A stretch of DNA of 64,000 bases from Adineta vaga (taxonomy: Eukaryota > Animalia > Rotifera), in contig CP075493.1 of NCBI GenBank assembly GCA_021613535.1, positions 6,572,001-6,636,000 of the forward strand, given 5' to 3'. Positions 22,313 to 53,800 of the stretch are shown in pieces. The position numbers were made by a program, and so were the translations under genes. The notes beneath the pieces are model-generated. The model ran no database searches, was not told where the DNA came from, and was given only the letters and a program-made list of their open reading frames with translations. Position 1 is the first letter of the stretch. Each line of letters starts with the position of its first letter.

Positions 22313-23129
22313 TATGTATGCTTTCTATTTGAAAATGACGACATTATAGTGTTGCTTTCATTTGTACGTTTACTTCGATCGTATCGTAGCAACATCGGTA
22401 CGAGAATTTTGAAGAATGAAAAAGTAAGACGAATACACGCGTGCAACAGAAACGAAAAAAAACAACAGTCATCATACACTGTAATAAACACGAGCCTTCA
22501 TGTAGGAGAATACTTGGAATAATAAAGGATATATATGTTTGATTTCGAAGATCATATTGTATTTCAGTCGAATCATCCGTTCATGAATTGATATTTAAAT
22601 CAATTGAAAAAATAATAAAACACATTTAGATAGCATATAGAATAATTATATGTGTGGCGATACAACTGGAAGTAGTTTCTATTATTTGTTTCATCAAATA
22701 AGTCAAAAAGATTCTCTGATTGGTGCGAAATCATTTTGTTATAATATATTCACATATTTGCTCTTACTTCACCAAGTTCCAAAAACTCTATTTGTCATAA
22801 ACTGTTATAAAGAAGTTTAACTTTCTCCATCAATAACGACGAAAGAATCTGATTCGAATAATGTGTATTAATAATAAAAAAACTGCAATAATGCTCTATA
22901 CATTTTTATGAAATCAGTATATACTACATGCCCCGAAAAATAAACGAGAAAGAACAGAAGAGATAAAATATATCTTACTTCAGCATATAACTGAAAATAT
23001 CAATATCATTGTTTTTCTTAATCAATGCTATATGGTGTGTTTATCTTGTGAAAATATACAGATGGTATGCAGATATAAAATACGTATAATTTATATAATC
23101 TACTTTTTTCATTTTCAAGTGCAAAAAAC

Positions 23130-24526
23130 ATGATTTCTACTCTAATAATCACTTGTCTCTTCTATTTACTAAACCCATTTATATTCAATGTAAACGGAGA
23201 TACATGTAATACTTACAATCATCCTCAATATGGTATTGGCCAATGTATGAACCAAACTTTATGTCCTAATGCTTTGTATCAAAATGGTTTATGTGAATCA
23301 AAACCATTGGATATAAAATGTTGTTTTTCATCAGCACCATTAAAAGAAGAATTTCGTGCTGCTTGGATTGCTACCGTCACTAATATTGATTGGCCATCAT
23401 CAAGAACTGCCACGCCAGCACAACAACAAACTGAATTAATCAATATTCTCAATACAATTCAAAATTTGAATATGAATGCTGTTGTCTTTCAAGTAATATA
23501 CGAAATAAACTCGATCATATTTTCTATTTCAATCATATTTCTTTTCGAAAGGTACGTCCTGTTGGAGACACCATGTATGCTTCCACATTGGAACCATGGA
23601 GTATGTATTTGACAGGTACTCATGGTAAAGCACCATCGCCATTATGGGATCCATTAACATTTATTGTGAATGAAGCACATAAACGTAATATTGAAGTACA
23701 TGCTTGGCTTAATCCATATCGTGGTCGAATGTCGGGCGCAACCTATGAGTTAGCATCGAATCATATGGCTAAACGATTTCCAAAATATGCCTATACATAT
23801 AATAAATACATATGGATGGATCCAGGTTCCGTTGAAGTTCAACAATTTATTGTTAATGTAACCGAAGATATTGTTCGTCGATATGCAGTTGATGGTATTC
23901 ATATGGATGATTATTTCTATCCATATGGTGATGGAACCGATTTTCCTGATGCTGCAACATACAGTGCATATCAACAATCAGGTGGTAAATTAAATAAAAA
24001 TGATTGGCGTCGTTTAAATGTAAATACATTAGTTCAAGTCATGTACGCAAGAATGCATGCCATTCGGCCAAAAGTTAAATTTGGTATTTCACCATTTGGT
24101 ATTTATAAAAATGGTGTGCCAACCGGTATAACTGGCCTTTCATCCTATGATAGTTTATATTGTGATACTAAAATGTGGTTAGAACAAGGATATGTTGATT
24201 ATATGACACCACAACTCTACTGGCAAATTGATCCGCCAGCACAATCTTATCCTGTTCTTTTGAATTGGTGGATACAACAGTCAACTAAAGGTCGTCATGT
24301 CTATCCTGGTAATGCAGTTTATCGAATCCTTCCAACTGGTCTCAATTGGCCCGTTAACGAAATTGTTCGTCAAGTTAATATTACTCGTTCAATGCGTGAT
24401 CGTTTGGCACTTGGAAATGTTTTTTATTCGGTAAAACAAATTATGCAAAATGTGAAAGGCATTCAAAACGAACTTGCAACACTTTATAAACAAAAGGCTA
24501 TCATACCAAAGATGAGCTGGCTTTAA
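23130..24526 (+). CDS. Secreted glycosyl hydrolase-like 10 (GHL10/DUF187, YddW/DigH-like) with N-terminal 6-Cys module; exons 23130-23492 and 23552-24526
   Basis: Signal peptide; EFRAAWIATVTNIDWPS; spliced FQ|VRPVGD; HAWLNPYR; DGIHMDDYFYPY; FGISPFGI; DYMTPQLYW. A 59-nt phase-0 intron. Confidence 0.9.
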
Positions 24527-38981: not shown

Positions 38982-39995
38982 TTAGAAATGATTTACAGAG
39001 GGAATGGCAGATCTGTTTCTTCTTCTTCTTGTAACATGTGGTTGTTGATGAGCTTGACTTGCAATATATCTCCTCGACATGACAACTGGTTGAGTAAATT
39101 TCTGTTGAAAATAATTGAGTTGTAATGGAAATATGTTCGAAAGATATGGTGTTGATGACGATTGATAATCTCTGACTCCTAAATATATTTTATTCCATAA
39201 CAATTTGTCGAAATTTCATCAAATTAACTTACCAAATGGTTGCTTTAGTTGCATACCATAATTCCACATCGGATTGTTTTGAAATGAACCAGTCGGGACC
39301 AAACAAACATTTTCATAAACATTACTATATCGAATAGGTATTTGTCTATTGCGAGTTTCTTGTTGAACATTCGAAGATACACGTCTTAGCATTGTATCAA
39401 CATCAACATTCGGTGTCGTTATATGTCGAAGTAAATGATGAGTAAATATACTATTTCGTCCTTTGATGATCAAACTCGTAATTGGTGCTCCTTCTGCACC
39501 AGAATAAGCGATGATTGTCGATGGAGGTGGACGGACAGGTGCAAGACCTTGGAGCAAGCCCAACGTTTGTCGATCGAAAAAGGGCATTTGGCGTCCTAAT
39601 TCTCGATGAGGTCGACAACAATCAAGAATAACGATGATTGCTCTAGGAGCTTTACTTCTCATAGTATCTATAAAGTTTTCAACATTGATAGCATCTTCTT
39701 TTATATTTCCTGAATTGATTTGTGCATTATCTGTTGGAATTAAATAATTGAAATCATTATACTGTACACCAAGACCAGAAAAATAGAATATTACTAAAGA
39801 ATTTGGTTCAATAGATTGTGCAAATCTATTGGTACGTTTTCCCATTTGATAACTATCCAAATCTGTTGCACAATGTGTAAGAAATCCAATTGAACGTAAT
39901 GCCAAACACATATCATTTGCATCGTTAACACATGGTTTTCGTGGTATTGCTTCATAATTACTATTACCAATGACTAATGCTTGTCTTTGGAACAT
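38982..39995 (-). CDS. Peptidase C14 caspase-like protein (paracaspase/bacterial-type, no prodomain) with catalytic His replaced by Leu; exons 39995-39233 and 39178-38982
   Basis: ALVIGNSNY, PCVNDA, IFYFSGLG (expected SGHG), NYLIPTD, VILDCCR, IIAYS, NSIFTHHLL and QIP; Arg-rich tail exon. Confidence 0.85.
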
Positions 39996-41305
39996 AATTG
40001 TAGTCGACTAGATTGAATATATGCCGTGCAGATTTCTATTGATTGTCGATAATTAAACAATATTTTTATCTAATTAAATGAAGCTTCTGTGTATGATAAA
40101 GTTATTTAATATATTCTTGTTTTCTACTAAATCCGACATTCGTAAGATTATCGAAAAAAATGTTTTAAAATAGAATTTTTTTCATTCGAATACACGTATG
40201 AGTTAAGAGAAATTTCCAACCTAAAATTTCGGTTACTCACTTTAACTATTGTTTATTTTTATGATAAAATGTGATATTTGTTGTTGATTGCTTACATTCT
40301 ATCGCGATGAATGAATAATCGCTTGGTGTATAAGAATATTATTTCTTTTCCCCAACATAATAGCGTGTCTCTTATGTTATGAAAAAAATGGTTCAGGTCC
40401 AATAATTCTTACTGATAAATAGTGTCCTATAACCACCATATATCAAATAGATATGCTTGCATTTTTCTTTCAAAATAACAGGCAATATATACTCATTAGA
40501 GAATATTCTGGGTTTAATTGGGCTTCTGTAAAATAAAATCAACAGGTGTAATGTTTCAGATAAATTTTTCAGTAGAAAAATGTTGTATCAATCAAGATGC
40601 TTATCACTTAACAGTAAAAATTATATTAAAACCATGAGTATATCTCTAAGATGCAAAAAGAAGTCGTCTACTATATCTATAGAAGTTCTCGTTGAAGAAT
40701 TTTGCTTCTTAGGTCATCATAATGAAGCATAGAATGCAAAAAGGAAAATAAGAAGAACACTTTGCTTAGTAACTATATAACTAATAATGTGACAGAACTG
40801 AAAAATCAAACATAAAACAAAATCGACCATGCGACAAAGAAAAATAAATAAACATTTCGTGCACTGAGTATGGGAATAGTTTCATTAGTTGCTACTATCT
40901 GATCAATGATCCAGTGCATCCTTCACCTTTTTTTCTCTCGAATAAACAGAAAAATAGAAAAATAACTGAAATATTTCAGCTGATGTAGAAAGTAAGAAGT
41001 GAGTACGATGGAAAAAGCTTTTTTCGTTTGTGCATTACTAGGATGTCTTATTCATCATATTACAACTTCCTTTTTATTACATAATCATCGATGAGAAATT
41101 TAATTGCTTTTGTCACTCAAGAATCCTCACGTAATTATTATGACTAATTTTGATGAAATGACGCGTTTTGTTCTATACAAACACAACCTATTATGTAGAG
41201 AAAATTTGTTTTAATTCTTTTTTTTCTGTAAATTTATTGATATCTAGAGCGTTTTTTTTTCAAATAGATGTTTTCACTTTTAGATTAGTATCGTACATTA
41301 TCAAC

Positions 41306-42277
41306 ATGTACAAGAAACAAGCACTGCTTATTGGTAATGTTAAATATGCAGAAGGAGATCTAGTACCTTGTGCAAAAGATGCTAAAGATACAGCTGCATC
41401 TCTACAATCGATTGGTTTTCAAGTGCGAGTTGGATTGGATCTTGGTAACGATCAGATGAAATCGACGATTCAGCAATTTGCACGGTCTGTTCGACCAGGT
41501 GCTGTAGTTATCTTTTACTATTCTGGTCATGGTGCTCAGTTTGATGGGAAAAATATTTTGTTACCCATAGATTTTTCCGATCTCAATTGTACTAATGCTC
41601 AAAATGTAATTCAACAGCTACATCAAAATCGACCACGAGCTGTTATCGTCATTCTAGATTGTTGTCGTACCCGTTTGAACATATTGGATGAAGCGAAAAG
41701 AGCTTTGTTCTTCGATCGACGTCCAAGACTAAGAGATGGTCTTACACCTATGGGAGGTCCACCATCAACGATCATTGCTTATGGATGTGCAGCTGGAGAA
41801 TCATCCATAGCGAGATCTAATCTCCGAAATAGTGTTTATACACATCATTTACGTCCTCGTATTACTACACCCGATGTTGATCTTGAAACTATATTGAAAT
41901 ATGTTGCTATAGATGTTCAACGAGACTCAGATAACGAACAATTACCTTTTATCTTTAGTAATTGCAATGAACCTATCTATCTTAATAGTAATTCGTGGTC
42001 AAATAGTCCGGCTTGGCCACGAGCTGTACATTTCAATCCAGTAGTGAGTGAGTGATTGATTATGAAAATAGTCTGTTTACATTTAATATTGCAAATATTT
42101 TTAGTGATGTCTGATAATCGTCTACGTCGTAAACATCATGCTACTTTCAATCTTCGACCAGAAATGACTGATTTCTCACATGGTTTTCGTGATTATTCTC
42201 GTATACCAACTAATAGATATCCATTGCGAAACCATTTATGGTCAGGTGCGATGGAATCACCACATAGACACTGGTAA
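41306..42277 (+). CDS. Peptidase C14 caspase-like protein with intact His-Cys dyad; exons 41306-42047 and 42105-42277
   Basis: ALLIGNVKY, PCAKDA, IFYYSGHG, ILLPID, VILDCCR, PPSTIIAY, NSVYTHHL and EQLP; clear paralog of the upstream divergent gene. Confidence 0.88.
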
Positions 42278-42597: not shown

Positions 42598-43326
42598 ATG
42601 AAAATATCAAATGAAAATTCAGCTGATGCTAATCGTAAACAAAACAAACCATTCTTAGTTTTCATAGCTGGACTTCATTCAGCTGGTAACTATTTACTCC
42701 TTATTTTTTATTCTACTCACCCTCAAGTTTCATTCTATTCAGGCAAAACAAGTGTACTCTACTACGCAAAACCTAAAGAACAAATATCTGGATTATTCAC
42801 CATGGGCCTATAATTGGAAATCATTTCAATTGGTAACAACTCTATAAATTTGCTAGATGAAGGTGGACGTTCATCAAGTCGTGCTTTTTTTCGAGCTTAC
42901 TATCGAAGCCTTTCAGGACTTATCTTTGTAGTTGATTCAAATGATCAAAGTAATATTGACGCTGCATGTGAAGAACTTCATCAAATAGGTATTGAAGCCG
43001 AACTACAAAATAAACCTTTCCTTATTCTTGCTAATAAACAAGATTTATCTACTGCAATGCCAGTAGATGAATTAGAAATGAAACTCAATCTAGCGAAATT
43101 CAATGGAACTAGAAAGTGGCATTTACAACCAACGTGTGCTGTTCGTAGTGAAGGTGTTCAAGAAGTCTTAACATGGCTACTAAACGCAATAATGGAAAAA
43201 CAAGCTTTGATAAAACCAGCAATAGAGACAGTAAAAGACACAAAATCAATACAAACTTTTCTCAACTCTCTTCTAAATATGAATGATGTAAAAACATTTT
43301 TTAACAGACGTTTTAGTTTCACATAG
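42598..43326 (+). pseudogene. ARF/ARL-family small GTPase with in-frame TAA at 42811-42813
   Basis: G1 GLHSAG|KT (intron 42686-42742); switch I reads TMGL*LE; G3 DEGGR; IFVVDSND; G4 NKQD; G5 TCA. Confidence 0.8.
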
Positions 43327-43777
43327 GCATCTATTTATATTCGTACATTTTATTTCGGATTATCGATTATGATTGAGGTCATAAAAAGGTCTTCTATTGC
43401 GTTTAGATTTTCATCTGCACTGTTTTTTTTCTATTGATAAGAAATGACCATCTTAGTTGTATTTGCCGAAGAATAAGAAAATAAACTCATAGTCTGTTTC
43501 AAAATAAGCAACGCTTTTGACATTCTTTTCTTCCTTTCTCAACCGAAAAGAAACATGAAAAACAGAGTTTTTTTTTCTTCCTATTAAATACGACTAAAGA
43601 AGTTTCTTTCAGTTCACATGTGTCTGTAATATAATAGCTTAAAAAAAACCCTATTTCTGCGAATTCTTTTTTCCCTTATAATTTTTCCAACAATTCCGCC
43701 GCCGAATAAAGGTATAATTCTTTGCATTTAAACTAAGCTTCACATAAAAGAATTTTTATCGATTGAATCAGCGTAGT

Positions 43778-46700
43778 ATGTCAAATTGTTCTTCATGTAA
43801 CCAACCATTGTGTGATGACGATGACGAGGAAGTAACTACAAAGTCGGGTGTTAGATTTCATCGCACATGTTTGGAACAATTACTCAAACCAAAATCGAAA
43901 ACTACTCCTAAGGTAACGAAAGAAAATACATATATGAGATTAAGATCATTTCTGAAAAGTAAACTGGAAATTTTCCAATCAAAATTCTCTTTTTGAGCGT
44001 AGCAATATAGATAAATATATTCGTTCAGTTACTCTTTGTACTGAAATAATCAATATCGGTAAATATAAGGTCGTAGATGATGGAATGCACGAAACGTCAT
44101 CGTCACAAGGAACACCCTGTCGATATGGTGGTGAATGTCCACAGATCAATGATAAAAGTCATTGTCGTGATTATGCACATCCAGACTATTGTCAAGATGG
44201 TGGTCATTGTATGAATCAAACAGAAGATCATTTGAAAAAATATCGTCATTTACCGCTTTGTCCACGAGCGAGTAAATGTATCGATTATCTAAAAGAAGTC
44301 AAAGAACATTGTAATAGATATCGTCATTTTGCTCCACGTTGTCCATATGGGAATAATTGTGCGTTGTTTCATGATAAAACTCATTTCGAAGATTTTCAAC
44401 ATCCATTTCCGACTCCTTGTCCACGTACTCCATTCGATTGTCCACTCTATAGTGCTTTATGTGAATCAAAGAATAATCAAACTTTACCAAAATCAACTCA
44501 TCAACATTGTTTGAGTTTTGCTCATGTATGTAAATTCGGTCGAAACTGTACCGATACAACACAATTACATCGATCCAAATCGATTCATATTGCTCGTCAA
44601 GTATGTCCATATCGTGAAAGGTGTTATAAAGTATCCGATGAAGATCATATAAATTCATTTACACATCCGAATATTCCCGATATTCGACCATTATGTCCCT
44701 ATCGTGATAATTGTCGTGAACCTGAAAAACTTGAACATAAAGTTAATTTTCGTCATCCTATTACTCATGAAGCTGGTGTCGTACATTATTATGGTTCTAA
44801 TAAAAGAACAAATTTTGTTAAAAATCATAAGAATAATGTAGCTTGTGTCAATCGTTTTATTACTAAACATCAATGGAAACCCTTACCAACAGGAACTATA
44901 CCTGATGAAATCATTAATTGGATACGTACAGTTCAACCTATTCATCGATGCAGTGCAGTTATATTTGAATCGATACTTCTCCATGGATATGTGATGAGTC
45001 GTCTTTATATGGAACGTTTAAACGATCCAACATTTGTAGCTGATTCTGTCTTACATCATAGTCGTATACGACGTATAGAAGCTATGAAAATGAAAACATG
45101 TGAAGATGATGCAAGACAATATGTTACTGCATTAGTTTGTCGCGAATTTGAAAGAACTGGATTTCTATCAAAATCAACCAATCCTGCTCCATATGCGACA
45201 ACTTCCTTTGAAGAAACAATGAGAAAGAAAGAGAATAAGTTATCCGGAATAGTTTCAGTAAATGATATCAATGCACTACGTACAAAAGCTATTGAAATAG
45301 CACGAGCATCTATTAAACTTCATTCCGATCCAGCTGGTATCGGATATGCACCTGATAAAGCATTGGGTACGGATAAACTTGTTTTTAGTATACTTGGACC
45401 ACATTTAGGTCATTATTATGATGATATTATTATTATATTTAAACGAGATATTTTAAATCATCCTGATTCGAATTTTTCTATGCAAGCAGCTACTTCTTTT
45501 ATTAGTGGCAAAGCTTATAACCAGCGACCCTGGTTAGATGACGATCGTGGTTCTACACATGAACGAGCAAATCATTATCACACAACTAAATTGCATGCTT
45601 CAGTACCAGGTTATGAATATGCTGCGGCACTGGAATTGATGGCAATGACTAGTTTACATTTCAATTTGAAAACAATGGATATTAATCTTAAACAAATATT
45701 TGATCGATGGACAACAGTTGATTCTCATCAAAATATCGAAGCTCATTTACCTCAGTTGATTCCTCTCGATTATATAGATCATATTTATATACCAAGAAAT
45801 ATTTTTGATAATCTTAGTGATGATGCTAAAAGAGCTATCGAAGCTGTTTTTAATAATCGTATTACTATTACAGATCATATAGTTGAAAAGATATTGGATA
45901 AAAGATCCTTTGGTCCATCACCTAATTCACCAATACGAGCGGATTATCAGAATACAGTGATCAAAACATTACTGGCACGATATAAAAGATATACTTCTAT
46001 TCTAGCATTAAATTATCTCAAAGGCACAATAATAACAGTACCATCGACAAACCTCGACGATCATTATGTTTTACCTCTAACAATTTCTCAAGCATATGAA
46101 CAATATAGTTTTGAACGATCGAATCCATCTAGAAATAATATAACATATATCTATTGGAAAGCTCTACATGGAGATATGATGTTAACATTATCAAGTGAAA
46201 AAATTGATCCAATGGAGAAACAAACCCATCTTCGTTGTTTAATTTGTTATGTTGCTACAAAATCTGCATCAATTGATGATCATTACCATGAACCAACGTC
46301 CTATCTAGCAGCTGGACATCCATTTCAACATGCAATGATTACTAGTGAAAAGAAATATGCAGTGAAATCTAATACATTATATGTCGGTTGTAATAGTGCA
46401 GATTTTTTCACTTACTGCTTAGAAATTCATTGCTCAACTGGTCAAGTCATTCTAACACATGCTGGACCTAATGCTATTTACAGTCGAGGACAAATGTTTT
46501 GTAGTTTCAATCGATCACAACTCGATTTGACAAAATTGGAATTTGTTCATATTAGTGCTGGTACTCATAAAGTACCTGTACGAGAATTAATCATATGTTT
46601 CGAGAAACAATCTCATTTACATCCGACATTTGATAAAGATTTTACAGCGAATACACCATCAAAAAGTAAGTAATAATAATTGTCATCTTTGAGAATAATT

Positions 46701-46963
46701 GATCTATGGATTCTTGTTTTAATAGCAACAAAACCATACATCAATCCATCTACGCTTAAAATAACGGTGATAATGATAAACGAACACTATGTAAATGGGG
46801 AGTCGATTGCTACGATCATTCGAAAGATCATCGATCGGAATATTTTCATCCTTCAACTTCAAACTCGAAAAAACAAGAAGATGAATATCGAAGACAATGT
46901 AGATGGGGAGCGAATTGCTATGATCATTCCAAAGATCATCGATCAGAATTTTCACATCCATAA
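43778..46963 (+). CDS. Multi-PBZ (CCHH) zinc-finger protein with central putative ADP-ribosyltransferase (DarT-like) domain; exons 43778-43912, 44070-46665 and 46726-~46963 (last exon needs one more A near 46760)
   Basis: Exon 1 CxxC..HxxC splices in frame. Eight C-x5/6-C-x(6-9; one longer)-H-x5-H repeats. Central motifs PIHRC..FESILLHGYVMS, DKLVFSIL and HQNIEAHLPQLIPLDYIDHIYI. Two more CKWGVDC/CRWGANC..H..HP fingers at the 3' end. Confidence 0.75.
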
Positions 46964-47895: not shown

Positions 47896-50800
47896 TTAAC
47901 GAGGAGTAACAGAAGGTGGAGGTGGCGTTGATTGAAGTCCCATCGGATTTGTATTCATACCCGTTGATGGATCATTTGTCACAGACGATAGTGATGACGC
48001 AAGTGGAGTTCGAATACGTTGTTGAATCGGTAGAGTTCCATAAGCAGCATTTGGTGGTCGAATACCACGTGCTGTTGCCATATTATAATCCGGTGTTGGT
48101 GTCATTGAACGTTGAGGAGGAGGATAGTAAGAAGCGTTTGTTGGTGGCATATTTGAATAAAAAGGAGTTTGTGGACGTGAACGAGATTGAATAAGAGAAT
48201 GAAACATTTGTTGTTGTTGTTGTTGTGGCTGTTGAAGTTGCTGTTGAAGTTGCTGTTGTTGTTGTTGTTGTTGAAGTTGCTGCTGCTGTTGTTGTTGTTG
48301 TTGTTGTTGTTGAAGTTGCTGCTGCTGCTGCTGTTGTTGTTGTTGTTGTTTTAATGGATCATCTAAGAGATCATCAGGTTTTATCTCGATTGAATCGAGA
48401 AGAATTGGTTTACAACTAGCACCGTTTGACGATGTTGGTGTAGATGGCATTGAGTATGTAGGTGTTGGACCTTGTGAAAGAGATCGATGTGTTGGTTGTG
48501 GTGGTACTTGAGATTGCTGTTGATACGGCATCGTTGAAGGATGACTATAATACGAGTTAAGTGGATAGCGAGTTGGTACTTGCTGTTGCTGTGGTGTTTG
48601 TTGAGGTAGCATAGGTTTACCAGCACGTGCTGCTGCTAATGCATTAGGATCCATTTGTTGAGAATGAGGATAACCTGGCGGAGCTGAAAATGCATTCATT
48701 CTTTTGTTTTGCAAAATCACATATTATTTTAATTAAATTATTTACCTATATTTGATGGATACGGATAAGAACTTGATGGCACTTGTGGAGTTTGTTGTCG
48801 CATCATATACGGATCTGCACCATATGGCATTCTTTGTTGAGTATAAGCCATTGGTTTACCACCGCTGGCCATATGTGATCCATATCGATGTTGTTGTTGC
48901 TGCTGAGACATCCATGGTTGTGATGATTGTTGAGGATGAGACATCATCATTGGATATCCGCCACCTGCTGGATTACCTTTACCACCATTATAATAAACTG
49001 CATGTTGTGAAGATGATTGTTGAGAAGGTAGACTTGCGCGTACTAATCCACTCATAGATGTAGGTTTACCACCTTTGCCACCTGATGGCATCATTTTACC
49101 AGATGAACTTGGTGAAGCAGATTCCATTGGATGATGATACTGTGCTGGTGTAGATTCAGTAGTTTGTGAACTAAGTGGAGATGGTCCTAAATAATAGAAG
49201 AATTAACATGATATTTTTTCTATCAATTATAGTTGATAATAATCAATCAATGTAAATACTGTTTACAACATTATAGATGTTATTCTTCGAAATCAGATTA
49301 CTCTAAGATATTCTGATTATCAGTAAGTTGATAACAATCTCTGTTCAAATCATAACCTACCTGGTGCCATTTTTGCTCGATGCATTGCTTTGATACGTCG
49401 TCGATCTGCTTGCATAGTTGCTGCACGTTGCCGTTGAAGTTTATTTTTAAAGCTTGCACAATAAGGTAACTAAATCAAAAGAAGTATTGCACATGATATC
49501 GAACAAAAAAGAAAAACAATGAAACATACGGGACAATTTTGATCATTACATGTTTTTGCATGATACCAAATCGGTGATATAAGTTTATTACACAATGGAC
49601 ATTGATTTCTTGAAGGTTTAGTGCATTCTTTCGCATGTTGAAGTAATCTTTGGCATGGTGCACAATTTTTAAATATACAATTTGCATTTCGACATTGTGC
49701 TGCATGACGTATGACATCTAATTGTCGTTGCATCATGACTTGTCGTTGTTGTTGGCTAGTTAATGGTGTATCCGAATTGGCTGGTGTTTCACTTGTATCA
49801 TCTGAACGTTCCATACGATGTTCATGTTTAACTGTTGTATAACATTTACTGCAAAGATCATAATCATCACAGACAGTACAATGATATCGAATATCACATA
49901 ATTGTCGACATGAATTACAAGTATATGAGACTTTATCTGCTGTTGATGAATGTAATTCAATTAATGAAGCCATGGTAGAATATTTGGCACGACGTAACGA
50001 CGAAAATTCACAATGTTTATCACGAGCAAAACTTAGAAAAGCATCACGAGATTCCATTAAGTCACATTGTATTAATGGATCTGTATCGGTTAATGTTGCT
50101 GGATTCGACATTGGATTACGTAGACGAACAACAAAGAATGACTAAATAGATGAATTTGATGTATTTCAAATCATGCTAAAAAGAAAGTTTTCTCCTACTT
50201 CTTTATGTTTTTCCATCATTGCATAGATTTTTGTAATTAGATCTGAACCATTGGACATATTTTTTCGTGCTACTCGACGTTGACCAGTTGTTTTCTTGAA
50301 ATTTTTCTTCTTATGTGTTGTTCCACCACCTGATTTACGCTTATCAGATATCTATAGATTGAAATAGATAAATCAAAATGATAATTTTCTCTCATTAATT
50401 CGTAATTTTACTTCAGTTGGTTCTTCAGGTTCAATAGGATCATCGAAACAACCATCATCCGATGCTTTGACAGCTTCAAGTTCTTCAAATTTTCTTCTAT
50501 CTTCTTCTTCAGTATCAAGTTCTTTCAATAAATCTTCAATTGTACTTGACCAAAAATCACCTTCAAAATATGGAAGATCCGATGCTTTTGTTATGCCACT
50601 ATCAGTACAATCCTTCATTACATCCTAAACATAACATAACGAAAATGTCAGTCGAAAAAGAAAACAATGAGTCGAATAAGAAACAAACTTTATAATCGAC
50701 GACAACTCGTTGATTAACAGCAATATCTAACATTGTTTTATACCATTCTTGCAGGCGTTTTGGTTTAGGTACACGTTGTTCAAATGGATGACAATGAAAT

Positions 50801-53800
50801 ATATAATCATCACCTTCACTTGGTGGACATGCCCAAATATGTGCATAGGCAAATCCGAGTTGTTTAGCATATTCCAGATAACCAATGAGAATTTCAAAAT
50901 AAAGTGCTGTTCGCTTTTCTTTCGGTCGAAAATAATGTACAGAATCAAGATAGGAGATATAGACACGTCTAAATAAAACGAGAATAAATTTAAGAGAAAT
51001 TTAAAATACGACACTTTTGTAAACACTATTCTCAGTGTAAACTACAGAAACTATGCGAAAGAAAAATAAACTATAGATCTTACCTAGTATTCGGTGCTGG
51101 ACATCGACTATCATATTCTTGAACGTGCATTCCAAAGAGAACAACATCAGCACCATCGATTTCTTGAAAGGCAAATATTGCCTTTGTTCTATATGGATAA
51201 CCATCTGGTACTTGAGAACCGAAATGTTTCTTCAATCTTGGTTTTACTTCACATATACGATCACTTGCAGCTAAAATTCGTATAGTAACACGACCTGTAT
51301 CAGGCTCACAATCTTTTCGAAGGAATTCATTCACACGTTTTTCTAATGCATTTGCTAAATCAGTCATTGTTAATTTATGTGCCATATAACGATTTTCTTT
51401 TCGTTTAATATTGTATTGATTAACACATGTTTGACAAACATAACCTTCAGGCCAAATATGTTCATGATAAAGAACACAGATATTATGGAAACGTCGTGAA
51501 CAAACGATACAATCGGTCATTGCTTCTTGTTCTTGATGATCATTTTTAGCTTGCTGAAATTCTGCTTTGGGTAATTCAACTAATGTTTGTGCAGTATCAT
51601 CACCAACTAATATATATTCTGATTTAACAGAATCAAAACATTTCTTACAAAATGTATATTTATCACCGGATAAATTATTTCTTGATGAATCCGGATTATT
51701 ATAAACGAAATAATCACCATCACGTGGAATAGTACAACACATTCCATTGACACCATAACAAAACATTGCTGATGGTAAAAAAACATATTGACGTCCACAA
51801 CAATAACCATAATCTTTCATAATAGGATCAACTAATTCCATAAACATTTCAGAAATCTAATAAAAAGAAGATGTGAATTTCATTTCTTATGTTCAAATTC
51901 ATTTACCTTTAGACCAGCTTTATAAACTTTTTGAGTTTTCTTATTAAATGTCCATGTATTACTAAATACAAGCCAAACATCTTCACAAAATTCAAATGGT
52001 GTTGTATATTTATTTTCATCTAATTTTGTAAAGATTGTCGAAAAATCCATAGGACATTTGATTATATCAAAATATCCCGGTGCAATAGCTTCAGTTACTG
52101 GTTGCCGAAACCAAACACCTTCTTCTTGATCATATAAATGACGAAGTATGGGTGACATTTTCTCTCGAATATCTTCCGAAGAAAATTCAGCTGGATGTTT
52201 TTGTAATAATTTACTTGCAGCATCGATTAGTGGTGTACGATTCGATTTAGTTGTTTCAATATCAGTTTTTTCTGTTTTTATCAATTCAACAGTAGTTGTA
52301 GTGATATTATTACCATTGACCGATGTTTCATTTGTTGTAATTGTTTCTTCTTTTTTAATGATTGTAGTTGTTGTAGTTGCCTAGAAATAAATGAAATTTA
52401 TATTTTTGTAATATTCTCTCGTTCATTTCAATCATAAGTAAATGTTGCTGCAAATTCAATAAAGGTCAACAAGTGCGAAGTCTTCAAGGTTGAAATTCGC
52501 TTAACGTCGTTTTCTTTGCAAAAATTCGTTGACAACTAGTTTGTTCTAAGAAATTGTTATCCCTATAGGTATTGTCTTCGAATGACTCACTTGAATTTTT
52601 GTATCATGATTGGGTGATATCTGTTCTGTTTTAATTGGTTTTATATCAGCATGTGTTCCATTTGTATCTGCATGTGAAATCATATTTGAATTATTGTTAT
52701 TAATAGTCATTCGATTGAGACTATCAGTTGAAATGCGATGATTATCAAAAGATATTGTTTGGGTTGGATTGGGAGTATGATTTTCTGACTTAATTTGTGT
52801 TGTAGTAGTTGTTGTTGTTGAAGATGATAGAAATGAGGATGGGAAATCTGATTGTGGTGCAATACGATTCGGTGGACCTTGTTCACCAGCTGATTTATCA
52901 ATTGACGTTAACGTCGTAGTCAAAATTTGTTGTTTCTTTGACATTTGTTTTTCTTCGTAATCTTTTTGTATTTTATAAATACGTTCAGCTAAGCGATGAA
53001 AATAATCTTCATGACTTATAGCTGTATTGAATGTTTCTGCCTCAGTTTGTTGAGCATAAGATGTTACTGCTGACAAACGATCAGGTGGCAAAGAACGGCC
53101 ATCTTGTTGAACGGTATTTAATAGTGCTGCAACAATCTTTTTGACTAAATGATTTCGTTGATCAGTATGTAGTTGCTGTTGCCATTCTTTAGCTAAAATA
53201 AAGATTCAATGAAATGTTTTGCAAGTCATAGACAGAAAGAAATGAACTTACGGATAGAATTTTGTGGACGAAGTGCAGATGGCTTTTTTAATGTACCACA
53301 TATGGAACAATTCGGCGTAGTACAATTTTTCCAATGGAGTATTATATGACGTGATTGAACACAGTGATTAACTAAAGAAATGAACAATGTATAAAATTTG
53401 ATAGAAGTGACAGTTTTTGAACGCTTTAACATTTATGAAAATAAATCTTCGTAATGAAGAGAATATGATCTAGTTTATCATTATTTGTGCTTAGTAGTCA
53501 CAGTTCAAGTGTCATATCCATTACTGCTGATATCTACGGGGAAAACATCGTTGCTGACCTTGTCTTATACGACACTATTCATTGTTATTCTTAGATAAAA
53601 TTCATGGTGAATCCATATCTTTCTAGATTGATATACAATATGATTATTGCAGATTTTTTTGTATGAGATTCAAAGAAAATCATGTCCATAACATAATCGC
53701 TTATTATAATTCACCTGTAGAATGTTCAACTAGAATCTATTCATTGATTGTAACTACTATTAGTTTCTTTCGCGGTTTTTATGGGAAATTCAAAATCTTG

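Follow-up and report, generated by a model that had tools for sequence, protein, structure and literature searches.

The 64-kb stretch of DNA analysed here (the window) carries a large open reading frame (ORF) with the exact sequence of NCBI I4U23_002105, from the bdelloid rotifer Adineta vaga. Its product is built around a core that, on structure prediction, almost certainly has an ADP-ribosyltransferase (ART) fold. The reading we favour, and hold tentatively, is that this core is an ART of the DarT/SopF/OspC group belonging to a widespread, unannotated eukaryotic family, and that it likely performs NAD+-dependent ADP-ribosylation of nucleic acid held by the protein's zinc fingers. In bacteria, DarTG is an established case of a writer and its partner eraser that ADP-ribosylate nucleic acid reversibly. 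As most long relatives have an ADP-ribose eraser domain in the chain of the predicted writer, the family is likely to be an overlooked reversible ADP-ribose tagging system. If true, this would define a new ART family and place an equivalent of DarTG within one eukaryotic protein, in several supergroups plus an animal. It would also account for the bacterial-type PARG found in long finger-rich rotifer and protist proteins, and would allow non-PARP ADP-ribosylation in eukaryotic defence or stress to be tested through one Glu and one cognate eraser.

The core has a predicted ART fold

An initial, sequence-only reading of this DNA had proposed a cryptic DarT-like ART in a globular region of about 300 amino acids. 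The core is in fact about 415 amino acids long, with a helical insert, and its AlphaFold model (79 alignment rows; predicted local distance difference test (pLDDT) 93.9; predicted template modelling score (pTM) 0.91) has the split beta-sheet of the ART fold that this proposal called for. When the model was compared against 48161 chains with VIA-align, the best match was SopF (Z 11.8, root-mean-square deviation (rmsd) 4.1 Å, 217 residues aligned, 9% identity), followed by OspC3 and CopC (Z 10.8 each) and Thermus DarT (Z 10.6, rmsd 3.5 Å, 178 aligned), with other DarTs at Z 9.5-10.1. Only eight chains reach a Z of at least 8, all of them SopF, OspC/CopC or DarT, and the top nine rows are all ART-fold; Tpt1 scores Z 7.2 and the first unrelated chain 6.9. 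The top eight Foldseek matches for the core likewise include SopF, DarT and OspC3, with PARP1 only at rank 29 (E 2.2). An ART fold near that of DarT therefore stands, but DarT is not singled out. The DarT profile (PF14487) matched none of 28 members in Pfam at E up to 5, and no match to it appeared among the listed PADLOC families. A viral fold search with the core gave no match at E 0.001, its weak rows comprising a granulovirus ORF, giant-virus proteins and a DUF3626 phage protein, and the Atlas leads OspC, DUF3626 and DUF3841 each scored below 0.9.

The features of the core are as follows, with residue counts taken over 230 further full-length segments, many of which are closely related:

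44766..46010 (+): predicted ART-fold domain of the DarT/SopF/OspC group, with helical insert (AlphaFold and VIA-align)
44943..44945 (+): predicted triad His, on the first strand, kept in 218/230
45354..45386 (+): conserved Asp 45354 (222/230) and predicted triad Phe 45384 (220/230)
45372..45389 (+): DKLVFS stretch
45417..45422 (+): YG motif, Tyr-Asp here; in relatives Tyr in 219/230 and Gly in 223/230
45738..45752 (+): E-x-H-x-P with the predicted catalytic Glu 45738; E in 226, H (45744) in 219 and P in 227 of 230

The conservation expected of H 44943 and E 45738 is thus borne out, and the start codon at 43778, both of these residues, DKLVFS, the fingers and the beta-rich region all lie where the sequence-only reading had placed them. 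The pattern persists among the 48 most distant relatives (below 36% identity), where H is kept in 45, D in 45, F in 44, G in 45, E in 47 and the second H in 46. Each residue of the predicted H, F, E triad sits on a predicted strand, and Arg is conserved at ORF positions 288 and 481.

These residues recall the OspC family (PF06128), which shares with the core its fold, an H-F-E triad, an [FY]G motif, an upstream Asp and E-x-H-x-P; both the last motif and the Gly of the OspC FG motif are invariant in 56/56 OspC-family rows. In CopC the triad is H137-F183-E325, joined in function by a second aromatic, D172, D230 and H327, and the Asp-Phe spacing of the family resembles that of D172/F183 (PMC9239266). 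However, the family has no C-terminal ankyrin domain, a beta-sandwich following the core instead, and the register between the two is a hand-trimmed profile alignment, placing YG on FG and ExHxP on ExHxP, that is not significant (10/100 shuffles score as high; hhalign probability <1%). In OspC3, D231 activates arginine (PMC11598138); the column that this alignment places on it is Ala in 209 and Ser in 17 of 230, which, if the register holds, makes arginine riboxanation unlikely. As the triad, [FY]G and E-x-H-x-P are common to OspC but the D231 column is Ala/Ser and the register non-significant, the core appears from its sequence to form an ART-fold family of its own, apart from DarT, SopF and OspC.

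DarT is paired with the macrodomain eraser DarG and uses an additional catalytic Arg for thymidine modification (PMC8883491). The family resembles this system in fold, in having His and then Glu in the same order, and, in most long members but not in the window copy, in a predicted writer tied genetically to a macrodomain-class eraser. It differs in being eukaryotic and a single polypeptide with a PARG-type eraser in place of DarG, and in its triad Phe, big helical insert, finger arrays, lectin-like domain and lack of a Pfam DarT match. SopF, an ARF-activated Salmonella effector ART, is the best fold match, whereas the family gene is endogenous to a eukaryote and its likeness to SopF is one of predicted fold.

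The same similarities would also suit a mono-ART that modifies proteins as SopF and OspC do, perhaps activated by a partner, with a host or pathogen protein as target chosen by the lectin-like domain or the fingers. SopF and OspC/CopC give the top fold scores, and the triad, the Asp upstream of it and E-x-H have counterparts in CopC, namely H137/F183/E325, D172 and H327 (PMC9239266). In addition, some family members are fused to guanylate-binding protein (GBP), ROC-COR, kinase or RING domains, and the window copy has one Arf-like and two caspase-like neighbours. The Ala/Ser column and the non-significant OspC alignment speak against this explanation. Moreover, neither an Arf nor a C14 gene lies near any of 49 family loci, many of which are short, and with 101 C14 proteins in A. 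vaga (PMC11258130) the caspase-like adjacency may be chance. On balance we regard a protein-modifying enzyme of this kind as unlikely.

The core is followed by a region that had been described as beta-rich and unknown. It is beta-rich, but recognisable, and is predicted to have a lectin-like fold, with VIA-align Z of about 11 against CBM66, galectins and L-type lectins:

46011..46655 (+): predicted ConA/galectin-like beta-sandwich (AlphaFold pLDDT 91.9; Foldseek E 4e-4)

A eukaryotic family that joins the core to a PARG

Searching 1.84 billion representative sequences with a profile yielded 252 matches at E <=1e-30, of which the best 150 were taken. Named sources include Diphylleia, Pelomyxa, Mastigamoeba, Kipferlia, Paratrimastix, Gefionella, Euglena, Pharyngomonas, two unclassified eukaryotes and a red-algal transcriptome, the last possibly reflecting contamination. 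Judged by these sequences, the family spans bdelloids, amoebozoans, metamonads, discobans and other protists. No bacterium was named among 30 proteins looked up, about half of which were unnamed or labelled only as TIGR02452 family. Pattern searches, which detect close relatives only, confirmed no relative among 141 GTDB and 31 viral-contig matches, found no match in plasmids and gave four in phages, which is chance level. Bdelloids are the only animals named among the matches listed, and a quick tree of 58 rows places 19 bdelloid rows on one side of a branch (SH-like approximate likelihood ratio test, SH-aLRT, 100), with the sister not resolved. Transfer of the family into bdelloids is a plausible explanation; six of the seven rows matching the A. 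vaga paralog ACD54723, among the matches listed, are flagged as horizontal gene transfer in the supplement to PMC12220480. The protist spread, the usual PARG fusion, and the PARG loss and Gly-to-Asp change of the window copy had all escaped the sequence-only reading.

The usual layout of the family is PARG, about eight fingers, ART, sandwich and further fingers. Among the 136 members with at least 600 upstream residues, 128 have a bacterial-type PARG upstream, those of Pelomyxa and Euglena among them, and 111 carry the PARG catalytic motif GG[GA]-x-QEE. In A. vaga itself the NCBI annotation holds at least five further loci, every one with PARG. The paralog ACD54723 shares the finger array, ART core and sandwich, and is, we presume, the A. 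vaga PARG already described in print (B3G4H5). Other fused domains are ART (PF01129), ADP-ribosylglycohydrolase, WWE, RING, GBP, LRR-ROC-COR and kinase, some perhaps being gene-model artefacts. Four proteins from Rotaria and Adineta steineri (P0027, P0032, P0043, P0229) have an R-S-E ART (PF01129) in PARG's place, giving two predicted writers per chain, and the distant members P0176, P0161, P0155 and P0224 are fused to a GBP domain, LRR-ROC-COR, WWE or kinase. Five members (P0103, P0105, P0106, P0109, P0114) are degenerate, with Tyr in place of the triad His; most are without the loop motifs and four retain PARG. Such degenerate copies, like the eraser-less ones, could serve as natural controls.

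In the model we propose, the finger array would grip nucleic acid and the invariant Glu would transfer ADP-ribose to it from NAD+, the acceptor group being perhaps a 2'-OH or a terminal phosphate, whether on RNA, on DNA or on ADP-ribose itself. The fused PARG would then remove the ADP-ribose, as DarG does for DarT in two-protein form, and the product of the eraser-less window copy could be reversed in trans by its paralogs. Bacterial-type PARGs cleave O-linked ADP-ribose, including that on RNA 2'-OH (PMC11833690), and because the fused eraser class removes this bond, an O-linked product on RNA, DNA ends or ADP-ribose would be expected. The immune-type fusions and patchy distribution of the family suggest a role in defence or conflict. 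Conceivably, the domain modifies no macromolecule and instead yields a small-molecule ADP-ribose product or acts as an NADase, with cell death or signalling as the outcome. ART folds can hydrolyse NAD+, and the immune-type fusions would be in keeping with such an output, but in 111/136 long members the fused PARG has its motif intact, which implies a removable conjugate, and we give this alternative little credence.

A more far-reaching version of the favoured reading, possible but doubtful, would see here a second, PARP-independent eukaryotic system: a single-chain writer, reader and eraser, related to toxins, old in protists and both acquired and expanded by bdelloids, that acts reversibly on RNA or DNA or builds chains, with the eraser-free Adineta copies as committed effectors. 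The listings of full-text literature searches, and the papers cited here, gave no account of the ART domain or of a writer-eraser fusion, although supplements could bear on novelty.

Several observations weigh against ADP-ribosylation of finger-held nucleic acid by such an enzyme. Foldseek returned nothing for the core at E <=0.001 (best 0.004), the superpositions are loose (rmsd 3.5-4.7 Å across 170-220 residues), and the ART core has no sequence match in Pfam, PADLOC or PDB. SopF, the best structural match, and OspC, with which E-x-H-x-P is shared, modify proteins. The argument from the eraser assumes a common product for writer and eraser, and the window copy has no eraser; the nucleic-acid grip of the fingers is putative. 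In the window copy, the Gly-to-Asp change described below may be inactivating. Finally, the ratio of non-synonymous to synonymous polymorphism (pN/pS) of 0.16, from the 30 listed coding variants (19 synonymous, 11 non-synonymous), is drawn from 40/62 rows and ignores mutation bias.

Zinc-finger arrays and RING remnant

The protein carries two groups of fingers:

44118..44756 (+): eight tandem PBZ-like CCHH fingers (PF10283 E 0.024, below cut-off)
46790..46849 and 46898..46957 (+): two C-terminal PBZ-like fingers, aligning with the C-terminal fingers of relatives

The array is beyond chance, with seven strict-spacing matches in 230 amino acids as opposed to at most two in 2000 shuffles, and zinc ligands in the arrangement C-x5-C-x6-8-H-x5-H are present in eight of the ten fingers, the other two having longer loops. 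APLF and CHFR are carriers of PBZ fingers, and PARP12 and PARP13 are zinc-finger PARPs. The family resembles the former in CCHH spacing and the latter in having a finger array beside an ART, but its fingers mostly lack the residues that bind poly(ADP-ribose) (PAR) and its ART is not a PARP. The novelty first claimed for so long a finger array was overstated, as an A. vaga PARG with PBZ repeats, and PBZ together with PARP domains in Entamoeba, Capsaspora and lancelet, have already been published (PMC4245714). That A. vaga protein is presented, in the portion of the paper available, as PARG and PBZ without an ART, whereas the window copy has no PARG.

The sequence-only reading took the fingers to be PAR sensors that would bring a DarT-like writer to DNA breaks as part of the DNA-damage response. 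Their PBZ spacing stands, the family profiles match APLF weakly (E 0.004-0.04), and the fingers have weak PF10283 matches. Fingers 7 and 8 come nearest the PBZ consensus, fingers 7, 9 and 10 keep both aromatic positions, and ten weak sites could bind by avidity, so that PAR binding by the array is possible. The fusion to a PAR hydrolase and the induction of PARPs by bdelloids after radiation (PMC10809525) would also fit. Against this, the published PBZ consensus, with its basic PAR-contact residues (PMC4756826), is matched in full by 0/10 fingers here and by 4/2187 fingers in 231 family proteins. APLF contacts PAR through tyrosine-arginine residues (PMC6264785), and the complete aromatic-Cys-aromatic-Arg set occurs in none of the ten fingers, the two C-terminal ones reading CxWGxxCYD with Asp at the APLF Arg position. 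The PBZ of SNM1A, which is without such residues, is thought unable to bind PAR (PMC4756826), and the Pfam matches of 87 members scanned include no BRCT, FHA or WGR DNA-repair domain. PAR sensing is thus weakly supported by sequence, and recruitment of the writer to DNA breaks seems to us very improbable.

Upstream of the fingers, the CxxC..HxxC knuckle seen earlier is present in exon 1 but is not a standalone element. It makes up the first of the zinc sites in a RING-H2 that is kept whole in the paralogs P0247, P0236 and P0083; only CxxC and HxxC are left, the second site being lost, and the window copy does not have the eight ligands of a RING-H2.

Eraser loss and the Gly-to-Asp change in the window copy

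The window copy clusters with three proteins from A. ricciae and A. steineri that also lack PARG, in an enclosing clade whose other 11 members have PARG (FastTree 0.98 and 1.0; 0.89-0.94 in a second tree). As the PARG-less group nests in a PARG-bearing clade and there is no PARG remnant within the 64-kb window, the loss is derived. The window copy also has Asp at the Gly of the YG motif, adjoining the second aromatic. This base is kept in near-identical contigs, diverged paralogous contigs having the Gly codon, and of the three other exceptions at this position, two are also without the motif Tyr. On conservation the change may weaken or impair the protein.

The window copy might be a paralog with little or no catalytic activity that has been retained to act as scaffold, decoy or regulator for the PARG-bearing copies. 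The replaced Gly is kept in 223/230 relatives and is invariant in the OspC FG motif (56/56), the eraser and half of the RING are gone, and degenerate copies do exist, eight members being without His or Glu. However, the window copy has all of its H, D, F, Y, E and second H residues, the Gly is retained by those orthologs from A. ricciae and A. steineri that lack PARG, and the window copy deviates at five of 110 conserved columns against a median of three. Most of the listed variants are synonymous, which points to constraint on the gene and to purifying selection. A dead or regulatory copy is, in our judgement, quite improbable.

Gene structure and transcript

I4U23_002105 is a real, spliced and transcribed gene, its transcription being read from intron-skipping contigs of sequencing runs none of which is catalogued as RNA. 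Its structure is as follows:

43712..43776 (+): intron in the 5' untranslated region (UTR), GT..AG, its junction found in a contig of run X10
43778..43912 (+): coding exon 1, half RING-H2 (CxxC...HxxC), with weak RING Pfam matches (E 1e-4 to 0.05)
43913..44069 (+): intron, 157 nt, GT..AG, absent from contigs of X8 and X10; NCBI model P0001
46666..46725 (+): intron, 60 nt, GT..AG, absent from contigs of X8 and X10
46760..46764 (+): site where the assembly lacks one base; extra base in 4/4 runs at full depth, near 46763
46961..46963 (+): stop codon

The two coding introns are spliced out in contigs of two of the four runs. As the exon upstream of the 5' UTR intron has an in-frame stop directly before that intron, the ATG at 43778 is the start in this transcript form. 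In the window sequence the final two fingers fall outside the reading frame, and NCBI model P0001 finishes in the wrong frame, but because 4/4 runs have one base more near 46763 the frameshift is an assembly error, and these fingers are, as first claimed, part of the protein. The corrected product of about 989 amino acids comprises the half-RING, eight CCHH fingers, core, beta-sandwich and two fingers. Pseudogene status was rejected, the frameshift being an assembly error and the variants mainly synonymous. No record of its expression under radiation or infection turned up, there being no match in 12 of the 16 supplementary files of PMC11258130.

Genomic neighbourhood

The neighbours in the window are eukaryotic and include cadherin, Sec23/24, BEACH, CBP/p300, Arf-like and caspase-like genes. 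The Arf-like GTPase gene (42598-43326, +) departs from the canonical switch II sequence (DEGGR) and is interrupted by an in-frame stop at 42811-42813, through which its A. ricciae counterpart reads; it may be a pseudogene, an allele or an assembly error. A fusion of Arf to I4U23_002105 was considered, as A. ricciae model P0002 joins the two, but was rejected because a stop codon lies in frame in the spliced 5' exon and none of the 49 family loci has an Arf nearby (reads being examined from 43600 onward). We take FUN_003123 of a published table, matched by its domains, to be a merged Arf and I4U23_002105 model. A complex prediction of the core with the neighbouring Arf domain, made without an alignment, was uninformative, with a score of 0.01.

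The caspase-like genes are two divergent Peptidase_C14 genes at 39219-39995 (-) and 41168-42055 (+), the former with Leu at the catalytic His (FSGLG) and the latter retaining His and Cys. Downstream, on the opposite strand, lies the CBP/p300 gene (47896-53200, -), whose C-terminal exon (47896-48720, -) encodes a long polyglutamine tract. A CBP/p300 gene with 90% identity also stands beside a PARG-bearing member in metagenome locus L011 (13704-14465), which suggests that this linkage is old synteny. Further away, a glycosyl hydrolase-like 10 gene (23079-24526, +; PF02638 E 7e-61) was possibly acquired horizontally.
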